Source: a virus
Lineage: Duplodnaviria; Heunggongvirae; Uroviricota; Caudoviricetes
Strand: one strand, 5' to 3'
DNA length: 64,000 nt
IMG/VR virus record: IMGVR_UViG_3300047666_001531
This document shows positions 2,361-54,596 of this stretch, piece after piece. Below the pieces are notes generated by a model that did no database searches, was not told the DNA's origin, and worked only from the letters and a program-made list of their open reading frames with translations. Each line of letters begins with the position of its first letter. Position 1 is the stretch's first letter. Both the position numbers and the translations under genes were made by a program.

Positions 2361-3418
2361 CATATGGATATGTTTGAAATGCAGGAAGCATTAATCACTT
2401 GGGTCACTAAGTGAAGCGTTTAAAACCAAAGCACAATATAACACGAGTAGGACTTACTCGTCACCTTTTGCACTCAGGATGAGTGCTATCGAATGGATTC
2501 GATACGACATAAATGGATTATGTCACAAGGAAATGTCAAATGGATTGGCATAAACCAACATAAAATGGATTTATCGCAGAACGGATATTGCGATGCTCAA
2601 GGATGGTAATGTTGGTTAAGGTTGGCATGAGGCCGGCTGTAATGGTCACCATGGAGGTGAATTCGGCAAGAAGCCGTTGATTTGTCATTATGATAAACCA
2701 TTACACAACATCAGCATGATGCAGATGTAGAAGCAAGAGCAAGATGCTCAAATCACATGATGTGATTGTCGCCATGGAGGCGTTTGCGGGTCGAGGCTTT
2801 CATGGAGAAGGTTTATGTAATAGAGCAGGGACGCTCGCCCTTACACGATGTATGGGTTCCTAGGCTGGGATTATTACAAAAATGGAGATACAAGCATGAT
2901 GCGACGTATCGAACCATTGGGCAGGACGCCTATATTGCATGATGCAGTATCGTCAGGAGACGAAATGGTTTCAGGGGTTGTTGCCAAGGAGGCGATTTCT
3001 GCAAGGATGCAGTCAACCAACATCTGCATGATGCGGATGGCGTACAGACCATTGATAGGTCAATCAACATGATGTTGTGGTCGCTAAGATGGCGAGTGTA
3101 CGCAGTAAGTGAGGCAAGGAGCCATTACGCTAAGGATAGCGTCACTTACGTCTAATTTAACGCAGCATCCAAGGATGGTTGTTGAGGGAGTTTAAAAAGG
3201 ACAAGGCAGCGATAGGATTCGCGTTTAATTATCATAGATGATAAGCCACCTACACAAGCAAGAAGCCTGTGTTGTATGACGGTCAAGGATGTTGCGCTTA
3301 ATGGATTAAGCGATCGTAATGGGATTCGAACGTCATACGAGTAAAGCTATGTGCCACACAAGTCACAAGTTAATCTAAGCTAAACGAGATAGGCACGTCT
3401 TTAGGCGTGCCTGTTTTT
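2361..3418 (+). ncRNA. CsrB/RsmB-like CsrA-sequestering RNA, unusually long (~1.05 kb)
   Basis: About 30 GGA trinucleotides, most in loops of short hairpins (e.g. GCACTC-AGGAT-GAGTGC 2470, TCACC-ATGGA-GGTGA 2646, ACGCT-AAGGAT-AGCGT 3127, CGCTTA-ATGGAT-TAAGCG 3296); no credible long ORF; candidate promoter TTGACG(2333)-19-TATCAT(2358); terminator at 3389-3418. 5' end approximate. Confidence 0.85.
3389..3418 (+). terminator. Intrinsic terminator of the CsrB-like RNA
   Basis: ATAGGCACGTC-TTTA-GGCGTGCCTGT then TTTT. Confidence 0.85.
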
Positions 3419-3435: not shown

Positions 3436-3897
3436 ATGACCCAAAACACTCAAAATTCAAAAGAAAATTCATTGCCGCCTGTTGAAAACCATATTCTAAA
3501 AATGCTTTTAGGCCACACCCAACGCAGTTTGTCTGAAATTCGCAGTGGTGTTAATGAAAATAAAATTACGACATATAGCTACAATGAAATCAAAATGAAA
3601 ATATTTTCGTTGATTGAAAAAGGTTATGTTTTATATGGTGATAGAAGAACGCGTTTTAGTATAACGGACAAAGGCAAGGCTGTTGTTAGTGCTGAAAAGA
3701 TTATTGCTCACAGCAGTGATAACGAGATAATAAATGCGATCAACTCACTTAAAAGTAAAGTTTCCGTACCTGTGAAGCCAGTAGTGAGATCGCTAGAAGA
3801 TAAAGTGAGTACTCTTAAAACTGTGTCTGGTATTGCTGGTATGCCAAGCGACATCTCTCTTTTGTTAGAAGAGATATCGAAGGACATATCAGTTTAA
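3436..3897 (+). CDS. Hypothetical protein, possible winged-helix DNA-binding N-terminus
   Basis: 153 aa; helix pattern then LIEKGYVLY...RFSITDKGK, typical of a wHTH wing. Confidence 0.55.
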   Translation: MTQNTQNSKENSLPPVENHILKMLLGHTQRSLSEIRSGVNENKITTYSYNEIKMKIFSLIEKGYVLYGDRRTRFSITDKGKAVVSAEKIIAHSSDNEIINAINSLKSKVSVPVKPVVRSLEDKVSTLKTVSGIAGMPSDISLLLEEISKDISV

Positions 3898-4236
3898 TTA
3901 AATTCTTATATCGTTCAGGTTAATGCTATCAAATGCTGATTGATTGTCTTTGATAGCCATAGCCATTCTTTCTAGATAATCAGCCAATTTAAGTGCTGCC
4001 TCGCTTGCAGTAGCCTGATGCGGAAACTCTTTGTCATTTTCAATATCAATATCCAGAGATGCTTTCCATCCACGATGCTCATATTTTAAAACAGATATAG
4101 GAAGTTCAAGCGACACGCCAGATTTTGAGTGCAACCCTATAAATGTAGCTTTAAGCCCTGGCTTACAGAACGCTTCATGTCTATCACCGGTTCTTTCAAG
4201 AAGTTCCAGCTTATTTATTGTTATTAAAGTTGTCAT
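3898..4236 (-). CDS. Hypothetical protein
   Basis: 112 aa ORF, follows 4245..4544 as a likely operon. Confidence 0.65.
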   Translation of the reverse strand: MTTLITINKLELLERTGDRHEAFCKPGLKATFIGLHSKSGVSLELPISVLKYEHRGWKASLDIDIENDKEFPHQATASEAALKLADYLERMAMAIKDNQSAFDSINLNDIRI

Positions 4237-32155: not shown

Positions 32156-32275
32156 ATGTTTACGAATTCATTCAACAGTAATATGACAGCGTTTAGAGGG
32201 GATTATATCTCTTCAGATGTTATTGCTGTGCGAGAATCAAATTCGATAAAAAGCATTAAGGTAGCATCCGCGTAA
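32156..32275 (+). CDS. Putative leader peptide of tRNA operon 1 (MFTNSFNSNMTAFRGDYISSDVIAVRESNSIKSIKVASA)
   Basis: GAGAG RBS-like site, ATG 32156, TAA 32273; composition matches the downstream tRNAs; followed by attenuator hairpins. Confidence 0.75.
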   Translation: MFTNSFNSNMTAFRGDYISSDVIAVRESNSIKSIKVASA

Positions 32276-32354: not shown

Positions 32355-32430
32355 GTTATTGGGATTTAAAAAGAGTAAGTAGGTGGTCGTTCCGTACTGA
32401 TAATAAGCGGAGCGGCCACCGGAATAAGGA

Positions 32431-32522: not shown

Positions 32523-32612
32523 GATGAGATGGCCGAGTTGGTCGAAGGCAGCAGGCTGTTAACCTGCCGGAGTTTATCTCCCACATTGGTTCAAATCCAA
32601 TTCTCATCGCCA
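32523..32612 (+). tRNA. tRNA-Asn(GTT) with long variable arm
   Basis: GCAGG-CT GTT AA-CCTGC; V-arm GGAG/CTCC; G73; CCA. Confidence 0.88.
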
Positions 32613-53505: not shown

Positions 53506-53574
53506 TGGTGAGCACCGGTATCGAACCGGCCTCCTCTAATTTTCAATCCGTTGCCAATCAGTCTTGGCAAGCAC
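53506..53574 (-). pseudogene. Degenerate tRNA remnant (probably Cys-derived)
   Basis: Intact T-arm GCCGG-TTCGATA-CCGGT and CCA, but a 4-bp acceptor and unpaired anticodon stem (CGGATTGAAAATTAG). Confidence 0.6.
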
Positions 53575-53622
53575 AAAAAATTAAATATCACCCTCTCAGG
53601 TAGTGTGTATCTTATTCTAATG

Positions 53623-53710
53623 TGGCGTAGGTACTAGGAGTCGAACCTAGAAGGGGCTTTTAAGCTTCCCACGGTTTTGGAGACCGCTTTGCTCACCAAT
53701 GCGTACCTAC
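53623..53710 (-). tRNA. tRNA-Trp(CCA) with long variable arm and short D arm
   Basis: GTAGGTA/TACCTAC; GCGGT-CT CCA AA-ACCGT; V-arm GGG.GCT-TAAA-AGC.CCC; G73; CCA. Confidence 0.8.
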
Positions 53711-53718
53711 TTGTATAT

Positions 53719-53792
53719 TGGAGCACCATACGGAGTCGAACCGTGTAACTAGGGTTGCAATCTAGCGCCTTACCAAACTCGGCCAATAGTGC
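53719..53792 (-). tRNA. tRNA-Cys(GCA)
   Basis: GCACTAT/ATGGTGC; TT GCA AC loop; U73; CCA. Confidence 0.88.
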
Positions 53793-53850
53793 ATTAAACT
53801 TTTCTTGTTCTTTATTTAAACTCTAAACACATTTCCTACGGTTTATGTAT

Positions 53851-53927
53851 TGGTCGGTGATGCAAGATTCGAACTTGCGACCCCTTCGCCCCAAACGAAG
53901 TGCGCTACCAGACTGCGCTAATCACCG
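53851..53927 (-). tRNA. tRNA-Pro(TGG), copy 2
   Basis: CGGTGAT/ATCACCG; CTTCG-TT TGG GG-CGAAG; CCA. Confidence 0.93.
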
Positions 53928-53956
53928 ATAACCGATAACCGATAACATAAAAAAGG

Positions 53957-54031
53957 TGGAAGGGGGAGGGGATTTGAACCCGCCGCACTGTCAGTCAAAG
54001 TGACATGCTCTACCAATTAAGCTATCCCCCC
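53957..54031 (-). tRNA. tRNA-Gln(TTG), bulged T-stem
   Basis: TGTCA-CT TTG AC-TGACA; T-stem 3' strand one nt short; CCA. Confidence 0.8.
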
Positions 54032-54033
54032 AT

Positions 54034-54110
54034 TGGTCGGTGATGCAAGATTCGAACTTGCGACCCCTTCGTCCCAAACGAAGTGCGCTACCAAACTGCG
54101 CTAATCACCG
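54034..54110 (-). tRNA. tRNA-Pro(TGG), copy 1
   Basis: CTTCG-TT TGG GA-CGAAG; two differences from copy 2. Confidence 0.93.
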
Positions 54111-54118
54111 ATATACGA

Positions 54119-54146
54119 ATAATATATCATTCCAAACAAAAGTCAA
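54119..54146 (-). promoter_or_regulatory. Proximal promoter candidate of tRNA operon 2
   Basis: Minus strand TTGACT-16-TATTAT ending ~8 nt before tRNA-Pro. Confidence 0.6.
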
Positions 54147-54225
54147 CAGAAATATTAAAATAAATTTAATTAAATCAACAGCTTACATATTTTTAGCATG
54201 AAGAAAACCCTACTTCATTTAAGCA

Positions 54226-54332
54226 TTAAAAAAGCCCTTAGACATACGTCTAAAGGCTTTAATAAGAGGGCTTCTTCAGACATATACGAATAACCGTTAT
54301 GACTGAATATCTATTTATTTACTTAATTCAGC
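54226..54332 (-). terminator. Attenuator of tRNA operon 2: alternative hairpins plus intrinsic terminator
   Basis: Terminator AAAGCCTTTAGAC-GTAT-GTCTAAGGGCTTT plus T-run; antiterminator ATATGTCTGAAG:CTTTAGACGTAT (12 bp); anti-antiterminator TTCAGTCATA:TATGTCTGAA; stop-codon pairing CTGAAT:ATTCAG. Confidence 0.8.
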
Positions 54333-54405
54333 GCACAACAATCCCTGCCGGCCACTGTTGTGGCAGACATATGCAGATGGGTTGCTGTACTACTGTATAA
54401 GTCAT
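54328..54405 (-). CDS. Putative leader peptide of tRNA operon 2 (MTYTVVQQPICICLPQQWPAGIVVR)
   Basis: GAGAG RBS-like site, ATG 54405, TGA 54330; promoter TTCCAA-17-TATTAT (54463-54435, extended -10). Confidence 0.78.
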   Translation of the reverse strand: MTYTVVQQPICICLPQQWPAGIVVR

Positions 54406-54596
54406 TATTGCTCTCACTATGTTAATTTAAAATGATAATATCATAAACAAATACGTTTTGGAACATTTTTGATTTATTTTGATAATAAATGTTCGACTCC
54501 ATCTGCGCTTAACTATTCTTTGTTTTGGCGAAGAAAACGCAAAAAATTAAGTTATGATAACGGGATAAAATATTTGCTTATAAAAGGAATTTGAGC

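Follow-up and report, generated by a model that had tools for sequence, protein, structure and literature searches.

Leader-peptide attenuators precede the amino-acid operons of enterobacteria (hisL, trpL, leuL, thrL and pheL) and include multivalent leaders, such as those of ilvGMEDA and thr. T-boxes, known mainly from Gram-positive bacteria, bind uncharged transfer RNA (tRNA) directly and without translation, and act on synthetase and amino-acid genes. The pheL leader is treated in PMC3082878. Long tRNA arrays (L-arrays) spread horizontally, and the trn operon on a plasmid of Anabaena PCC 7120 is induced by translational stress and controlled by the repressor TrcR, which binds DNA at direct repeats that cover the -10 element and the transcript start (PMC8421152, PMC10272220). 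Broadly, little is known of how horizontally acquired tRNA arrays are controlled, this repressor being the sole worked example that we found, and a literature search that left most subscription journals outside its reach returned no description of leader-peptide attenuation of tRNA genes. Here we analyze a stretch of 64,000 nucleotides (nt) from the IMG/VR record IMGVR_UViG_3300047666_001531 ("the window"), which we place on a giant marine conjugative megaplasmid (contigs of 460-583 kb), and focus on a minus-strand unit in which a short open reading frame (ORF), leader 2, and an intrinsic terminator precede a tRNA gene cluster, array 2. The mechanism proposed is of a known kind, leader-peptide attenuation, here placed before tRNA genes on a conjugative megaplasmid.

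Seven distinct leaders were compared, from the window and from loci L001, L005, L008, L014, L015 and L017 (hereafter the seven homologs). The relatives were reached through the neighboring, divergent Calx-beta gene, whose homologs in the protein collection are 49-60% identical, and a DNA pattern search of metagenomes added one more. They share a neighborhood composed of a methylase, a 223-amino-acid gene, in some cases a DUF2989 gene, the tRNA array, the leader and the Calx-beta gene, and lie at a syntenic locus of related marine megaplasmids. Over the unit, identity between each of the six relatives and the window is 75-83%, so that they are not assembly copies of one sequence. The parts of the unit in the window are:

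54435-54463, minus strand: promoter P1, TTCCAA (54463-54458), 17 nt, TATTAT (54440-54435), with TGA just 5' of the -10 element
54411-54415, minus strand: ribosome-binding site GAGAG, 5 nt 5' of the ATG
54328-54405, minus strand: leader 2 ORF, 25 codons plus UGA, MTYTVVQQPICICLPQQWPAGIVVR
54329-54395, minus strand: ORF-internal hairpin, with Gln-Gln-Pro in the 5' arm, Pro-Gln-Gln-Trp in the inner stem-loop and a 3' arm running into segment A
54326-54331, minus strand: segment A, CUGAAU, overlapping the stop codon UGA (54330-54328), invariant in 7/7 homologs
54298-54308, minus strand: segment B, in which AUUCAG pairs with A and UUCAGUCAUA pairs with C (anti-antiterminator)
54274-54285, minus strand: segment C, AUAUGUCUGAAG, with B or D as alternative partners
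54257-54244, minus strand: segment D, the 5' arm and loop of the terminator
54243-54234, minus strand: segment E, the 3' arm of the terminator, followed by six U
54228-54260, minus strand: intrinsic terminator, AAAGCCTTTAGAC-GTAT-GTCTAAGGGCTTT plus TTT, with a stem of 10-13 base pairs (bp) and a six-U run
54119-54175, minus strand: promoter P2, TTGACT (54146-54141), 16 nt, TATTAT (54124-54119), with a conserved A/T-rich upstream tract
53623-54110, minus strand: tRNA array 2, comprising Pro(UGG), Gln(UUG), Pro(UGG), Cys(GCA) and an atypical Trp(CCA), called by ARAGORN

An initial annotation of this DNA had listed P1, the GAGAG site, the ORF, the terminator, P2 and five tRNAs, and all of them are present where it had placed them. 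Its observation is confirmed, and its interpretation, an attenuator matched to the tRNA operon, is supported by the comparisons below.

Leader 2 contains 4 Gln, 3 Pro, 2 Cys and 1 Trp codons. The initial count of ten such codons in a core of 13 was borne out, and among 660 ORFs of 20-45 amino acids in the window this core is the densest 13-residue stretch (10/13, rank 1, the runner-up reaching 8). By overall fraction of these four residues leader 2 ranks third in the same set, and the binomial probability of its content is 3e-5 when the long ORFs of the window (9.4% Gln, Pro, Cys and Trp) serve as background. Across the homologs, frame 0 is the sole frame open in 7/7, the start codon is ATG or GTG, the stop is UGA in 7/7, the only indel spans a whole codon, and a purine-rich ribosome-binding site (GAGAG, GGGAA, GAGAA or GGAAA) is aligned in all. 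The conserved open frame, with its start codon and ribosome-binding site, points to a translated leader, as had been proposed. Nine codon positions are restricted to Gln, Pro, Cys or Trp in all seven homologs, with synonymous variation (CAA/CAG, CCC/CCT, CCA/CCG, TGT/TGC) and two replacements by another member of the set (Gln18 to Pro in L015, Pro20 to Gln in L014). Radical changes occur among the homologs at positions 2-6, 11-13 and 15, and the variable columns are spread evenly over the three codon positions (11, 12 and 15 columns). This variation fits neither a functional peptide nor a non-coding RNA, and leader 2 appears to behave as a regulatory leader. What it has in common with known attenuators is thus a conserved short ORF with ribosome-binding site and start codon, and a cluster of candidate regulatory codons. 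No second copy of leader 2 was found in the window or in the related loci retrieved.

The RNA downstream of the ORF is organized as a chain of alternative helices. The pairings A:B, B:C, C:D and D:E, which the initial annotation had drawn from one sequence, are kept in the seven diverged homologs: in alignment A1, 97.9% of the pairing cells are preserved for B:C plus D:E and 99.2% for A:B plus C:D, vs. 10-52% in slid controls. Column 153 (54283, segment C) changes from A to G in L001, L005 and L015, and columns 137 (segment B) and 191 (segment D) change from U to C in these same three, such that one base keeps two mutually exclusive pairings. Compensatory changes are therefore seen in B:C (137-153) and C:D (153-191), as well as in D:E (186-197, A-U in 3 homologs and G-C in 4), and an eighth variant, whose differences come from a low-depth metagenome contig only, carries the same B:C compensation. 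The invariance of segment A extends to the third base of the Arg codon and to the choice of UGA, while the A-B linker varies in sequence and in length (12-17 nt). Within the ORF, RNAalifold detects two compensated pairs in the hairpin, 57-92 (C-G in 4, U-A in 2) and 70-87 (C-G, U-G, U-A). This hairpin plays the role of the first helix of his-type attenuators and may also act as a pause hairpin. The leader RNA folds far more stably than shuffled controls (z = -6.1). Directly observed are the parts, how well they are conserved and how the alternative helices covary; judged on this comparative evidence the RNA switch is real, with an intrinsic terminator between ORF and tRNAs and mutually exclusive helices backed by comparative data (from few independent events).

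Estimated free energies are -15 to -28 kcal/mol for the ORF hairpin, -4 to -6 for A:B, -11.5 to -15.5 for B:C, -11.4 to -13.5 for C:D and, for the terminator D:E, -15 to -17.6 across homologs (-17.6 in the window, RNAfold). A simple scanner overlooked this terminator at 54260-54228. Before E is made, A:B plus C:D would outdo B:C by a few kcal/mol when A is free, and B:C would about equal C:D when it is not. To model the ribosome, all transcript behind its front edge was masked; equilibrium folding with the 5' side left unmasked was set aside as noisy, its arms pairing across the ribosome in a physically implausible way. In these footprint models, a stall at least 5 codons 5' of the stop gives the antiterminator in 7/7 homologs, and a ribosome 4 codons or fewer from the stop gives B:C in 4/7. 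The proposed choice of the fold by ribosome position is reproduced by the models for four of the seven, which switch when the ribosome front reaches A, and is left ambiguous at equilibrium for the window, L005 and L017.

Taken together, we judge it reasonably likely that the unit is a his-type, ribosome-mediated leader-peptide attenuator providing demand-driven transcription of the plasmid tRNA array above a basal level set by P2. We infer that the ORF is translated, that stalling serves as the signal and that read-through is what it produces; the physiological trigger is likewise inferred. In the model, P1 would make a leader RNA of ~200 nt, translated to a 25-residue peptide. With ribosomes reaching the UGA, or with no translation, A would be covered or locked in the ORF hairpin; with A unavailable, B:C and D:E would form and transcription would end at 54228. 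A ribosome stalled at least 5 codons before the stop, a stretch in which conserved Gln, Pro, Cys and Trp codons lie, would instead open the ORF hairpin and free A, allowing A:B and the C:D antiterminator to form and the polymerase to pass P2 into the Pro-Gln-Pro-Cys-Trp tRNAs. Candidate triggers are a new host in which these tRNAs are scarce, or a depletion of them. Since a putatively translated ORF rich in these codons and a switchable stop lie before matching tRNA genes, extra tRNA is probably made when Gln, Pro, Cys or Trp codons are read slowly.

The general idea that leaders are written to sample their arrays is further backed by the sister unit of the window, leader 1 and array 1, which we compared among loci around homologs of the gene adjoining array 1. 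Leader 1 has 39 codons, and its content compares with that of array 1 as listed here:

window, leader 1 at 32156-32275, plus strand: array 1 of 18 tRNAs for 14 amino acids; leader 1 holds exactly those 14 (14/14)
L020, leader 1 at 4039-4158: array 1 with tRNA-His and tRNA-Cys added, 16 amino acids; leader 1 with one His and one Cys codon added, exactly those 16 (16/16)
L022, leader 1 at 3671-3790: array 1 with tRNA-His, and with Arg and Asp lost; leader 1 with a His codon elsewhere than in L020, and with its Arg and Asp codons kept
L021, leader 1 at 4066-4185: array 1 decayed to 6 tRNAs; leader 1 with Leu and Gln codons

Across these four plasmids, leader 1 has His codons exactly where array 1 has tRNA-His (4/4), and Cys codons exactly where it has tRNA-Cys (4/4), while the hairpin after the ORF, the CCCAAG antiterminator and the terminator are nearly invariant. 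Like the L-arrays of PMC8421152, both clusters group extra tRNA genes that share one orientation and lie close together on a mobile replicon (5 here, 18 in array 1). The sequences of L014 and L015 stop short of the first tRNA or right at it; in the relatives whose sequence covers array 2, its content is:

L001: Pro(AGG), Gln, Pro, Trp, Cys
L008: Pro, Gln, Trp
L017: Pro, Gln, Trp
L005: a broken tRNA-Pro, Gln, Cys

The proposed match between leader and array is hence exact for leader 1 in two plasmids, but for leader 2 it is an enrichment rather than an identity, and one deaf to recent tRNA losses. The initial statement that leader 2 uses "exactly" the amino acids absent from leader 1 calls for a correction: leader 1 lacks six (Leu, Pro, Gln, Cys, Trp and His), of which four are supplied here. 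On a third array for Leu and His, which it had suggested seeking in related replicons, the answer is that His sits in array 1 of relatives. The arrays seen (window, L001, L005, L008, L017 and L020-L022) include no tRNA-Leu. As for Leu codons, leader 1 has none except in the plasmid with the decayed array, and they are found in most copies of leader 2, the one in the window carrying a single Leu codon.

Several observations weigh against an attenuator tuned to array 2. In two relatives, L008 and L017, array 2 is without tRNA-Cys, yet 1-2 Cys codons stay in their leaders, and L005 has no tRNA-Trp and only a broken tRNA-Pro, yet its Trp and Pro codons stay; strict co-variation of leader 2 with array 2 content was sought among the homologs and not found. 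The host's own tRNAs read the same codons. Furthermore, the majority of the conserved Gln, Pro and Trp codons sit in stems of the ORF hairpin, so that RNA structure alone could keep them. On the RNA side, A:B has only 6-7 bp, is weak and, being invariant, offers no covariation, and with seven sequences the compensatory changes possibly reflect one or two events. The window, L005 and L017 prefer C:D at equilibrium even with A covered; the switch must for this reason be kinetic in these three, and a kinetic advantage of B:C, which is made earlier, would be required. The caveat of the initial annotation, a promoter downstream of the terminator, has itself been strengthened: the hexamers of P2, their spacing, the TAAGTG.TTGATTTAATTGAA upstream tract and the distance to the tRNA are kept in 6/6 homologs that reach P2 (L015 ends just past its -35 element). 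In a textbook attenuator the regulated genes need read-through, with no promoter past the terminator, and here P2 stands at that place. Because it lies, conserved, between the terminator and the first tRNA, attenuation can only modulate or add to array expression, and the array does not depend on read-through, such that the contribution of the attenuator may be small. Finally, the locus was found in no run recorded as RNA, and the metatranscriptome runs of one study held next to none of its words.

These points bear directly on the other ways in which the locus could be read. The switch might be read by ribosomes but sense general translation stress (a slow-down, ribosome-targeting antibiotics or a shortage of ribosomes), with the Gln, Pro, Cys and Trp codons kept mainly for the ORF hairpin. 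The Gln-Gln-Pro and Pro-Gln-Gln-Trp codons do build the 5' arm and inner stem-loop of that conserved hairpin, leader 2 retains codons whose tRNAs have left the array, and general translational stress is what induces the tRNA operon on the Anabaena plasmid (PMC8421152, PMC10272220). However, changes at loop or compensated positions remain within the set (Gln to Pro, Pro to Gln), the variable positions 12 and 15 are frequently Cys or Gln, and leader 1 follows the amino-acid set of its array exactly, gains of His and Cys included, which a stress sensor does not predict; we consider this reading unlikely. It is quite unlikely, in our view, that the leader is instead an independent small gene, encoding a micropeptide or a small RNA of ~200 nt from P1 to its own terminator, with the array expressed from P2 only and the pairings without output on the tRNAs. 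Such a gene would account for a P2 that looks strong, is conserved and sits exactly in front of the first tRNA, and for the poor conservation of the spacer between the terminator and P2, and elsewhere attenuator RNAs, once released, and leader peptides can act in trans (rnTrpL, peTrpL; PMC6614838, PMC7298713). Yet a plain terminator needs no conserved antiterminator or anti-antiterminator, and position 153 co-varies with both of its partners; the peptide varies radically outside the Gln, Pro, Cys and Trp positions and the C-terminal IVVR, unlike a functional peptide; leader and array are present together at 7 loci and absent together in the single array-less lineage; and nothing else lies downstream on the same strand.

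A switch set by something other than the ribosome (a protein, a small ligand or a tRNA bound to the conserved hairpin), with the ORF incidental, finds a hint in the weak match of the B:C hairpin and terminator to the orphan trpB motif RF04312 (35.8 bits, E = 0.001, sub-threshold), whose authors are undecided among a riboswitch, a protein binder and a classic attenuator (PMC11109978). But that score is far under the gathering score of 59 and RF04312 is confined to Firmicutes and Fusobacteria, no T-box or other family appeared at E up to 1, and the ribosome-binding site, the ATG or GTG start, the frame and the stop inside A are all conserved, which a ribosome-independent switch would not need; the ORF is moreover the only conserved sequence 5' of B. 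We regard this possibility as highly improbable. A chance coincidence of an ordinary small ORF, a terminator and tRNA genes is hardly conceivable: A/T-rich intergenic DNA does abound in small ORFs and terminators, and two other small ORFs of the window are similar to leader 2 in overall Gln, Pro, Cys and Trp fraction, but leader 2 has the top local density among the 660 ORFs, and the whole unit is kept in seven diverged plasmids, with covariation, and unchanged in a second haplotype.

This second haplotype, seen in one isolate and several metagenomes and counted here as one haplotype rather than several independent ones, differs from the window by 11 substitutions, all within 54132-54208, with none in the 277 nt holding the terminator, switch, ORF and P1 and with the P2 hexamers unchanged. 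The single lineage without a tRNA array (L012, L013) is also without the leader. Beyond these relatives, DNA similarity searches with the unit against PLSDB plasmids and GenBank phages returned matches to tRNA-Pro only and no leader homolog, tblastn of the Calx-beta protein against PLSDB gave only distant matches on Alteromonas and Glaciecola plasmids, and neither the species genome set (protein and leader-pattern scans) nor IMG/VR yielded a homolog of the unit.

Transcription from P1 is predicted to start near 54428. The TGn directly 5' of its -10 element makes P1 an extended -10 promoter, and its TGnTATTATCATTTT is kept in 7/7 homologs. Its -10 region (54426-54443, minus strand) reads TGATATTATCATTTT and is similar to a replicon-wide TTATCAWWWTGAAAT/TGATAA promoter-operator module, of which the window contains 24 matches vs. 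1.7 expected; given this resemblance, P1 may also be under a plasmid-wide regulator. P2 is the best promoter match of the region (10/12, near-consensus) and follows the terminator after a poorly conserved spacer of ~80 nt, its -10 element ending 8 nt from the 5' end of the first tRNA in the window and 8-11 nt among homologs. Control of the TrcR type was considered and rejected: tandem direct repeats of TGTWNWWNWNNWGTANYNWA have 5 matches in the window with 1 mismatch, vs. 7.5 expected, and none at P1 or P2. An AAGTAGG motif, partly conserved in relatives, occurs shortly 3' of both attenuator terminators (~54200-54212, minus strand; ~32372-32384, plus strand) and could be a processing or pause site.

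Some of the tRNA genes are themselves unusual. The tRNA-Trp(CCA) of array 2 (53623-53710, minus strand), listed without reserve in the initial annotation, is called by ARAGORN but is atypical, with 88 nt, a long variable stem-loop, a weak D arm and a discriminator G, and goes unrecognized by the Rfam tRNA model, which matches the first four tRNAs of the array only. It scores 41.3 bits against the tRNA-Sec model (threshold 47), and related plasmids have a canonical tRNA-Trp of 74-77 nt at the same place. To judge from these features, the tRNA-Trp(CCA) of the window may be non-functional or of Ser-like identity. The start at 53506 initially given for the locus takes in a further element 3' of it:

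53507-53576, minus strand: degenerate tRNA-like remnant, found by relaxed ARAGORN only, with a mismatched acceptor stem

In L005, the broken gene (~2405-2476, minus strand) is a tRNA-Pro minus its anticodon region, directly 3' of P2. Such arrays appear to gain and lose genes fast. In array 1, a tRNA of 89-90 nt combines the Asn anticodon GUU with a class-II body in the window (32523-32612, plus strand), L020 (3698-3787) and L022 (3326-3414); of the three, only the copy in the window was folded, and it shows a long variable stem-loop together with a discriminator G. With an Asn anticodon on a Ser-like body, charging could be unusual.

It is tempting to extend the attenuator model from the single locus to the replicon, and we lean, by a little, toward the following view. 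Conjugative megaplasmids would run their imported tRNA arrays by "codon-census" leader peptides (4 amino acids here, exactly 14 or 16 in the sister array), using ribosomes to gauge the decoding capacity of the host and topping up only those tRNAs that are short, e.g., after transfer to a new host or upon tRNA depletion. Homeostats of tRNA supply that work in this way would form a class not yet published, one that has arisen or spread among unrelated mobile elements. If true, the model would carry classical attenuation over from the supply of amino acids to that of tRNAs and form a direct feedback loop, in which the ribosome signals a decoding shortage and the output is the missing tRNA; it would contribute to an understanding of how tRNA genes can be carried by large plasmids and phages with the tRNA pool of the host left undisturbed, and would provide a natural sensor, compact in size, of how fast particular codons are translated. 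Direct tests of the locus are feasible, as the unit spans ~350 bp and natural differences in tRNA content and leader codons exist among related plasmids, and a near-identical plasmid seems to be present in at least one isolate.

How, then, does the locus compare with described systems? Among Rfam families, only tRNAs exceed their gathering score on the unit; the matches to the trpB motif and to PyrR are sub-threshold and were dismissed as resemblance at the level of architecture. The trpB motif RF04312, the best Rfam match of B:C plus D:E, resembles the unit in having a hairpin whose right shoulder is a possible antiterminator, followed by a terminator, and differs in the score reached here (35.8 bits against 59); members of that family, whose ligand or mechanism is unknown, come from Firmicutes and Fusobacteria and lie upstream of transporter and trpB genes (PMC11109978). 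T-box riboswitches are alike in sensing tRNA status and in controlling an intrinsic terminator through an antiterminator, and cmscan found no T-box match in the leader at E up to 1. L-arrays and the Anabaena trn operon share with this locus extra tRNA arrays on megaplasmids, regulated and apparently switched on when translation is impaired, but the Anabaena operon is under repressor control, and neither PMC8421152 nor PMC10272220 mentions a leader ORF or attenuation. The enterobacterial attenuators come closest, with a short ORF (putatively translated here), clustered regulatory codons, mutually exclusive helices leading to an intrinsic terminator, and ribosome position as the decisive input, which for this locus is proposed; when the ORF hairpin is counted, the six-segment chain logic well established for the his leader is found here as well. 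The differences are a lack of sequence similarity or of a match to any Rfam leader family, a range of four amino acids (14-16 in the sister leader), a second conserved promoter and a location on a conjugative megaplasmid. Above all, the regulated genes here are tRNA genes rather than biosynthetic enzymes, so that sensor and product are the same kind of molecule.

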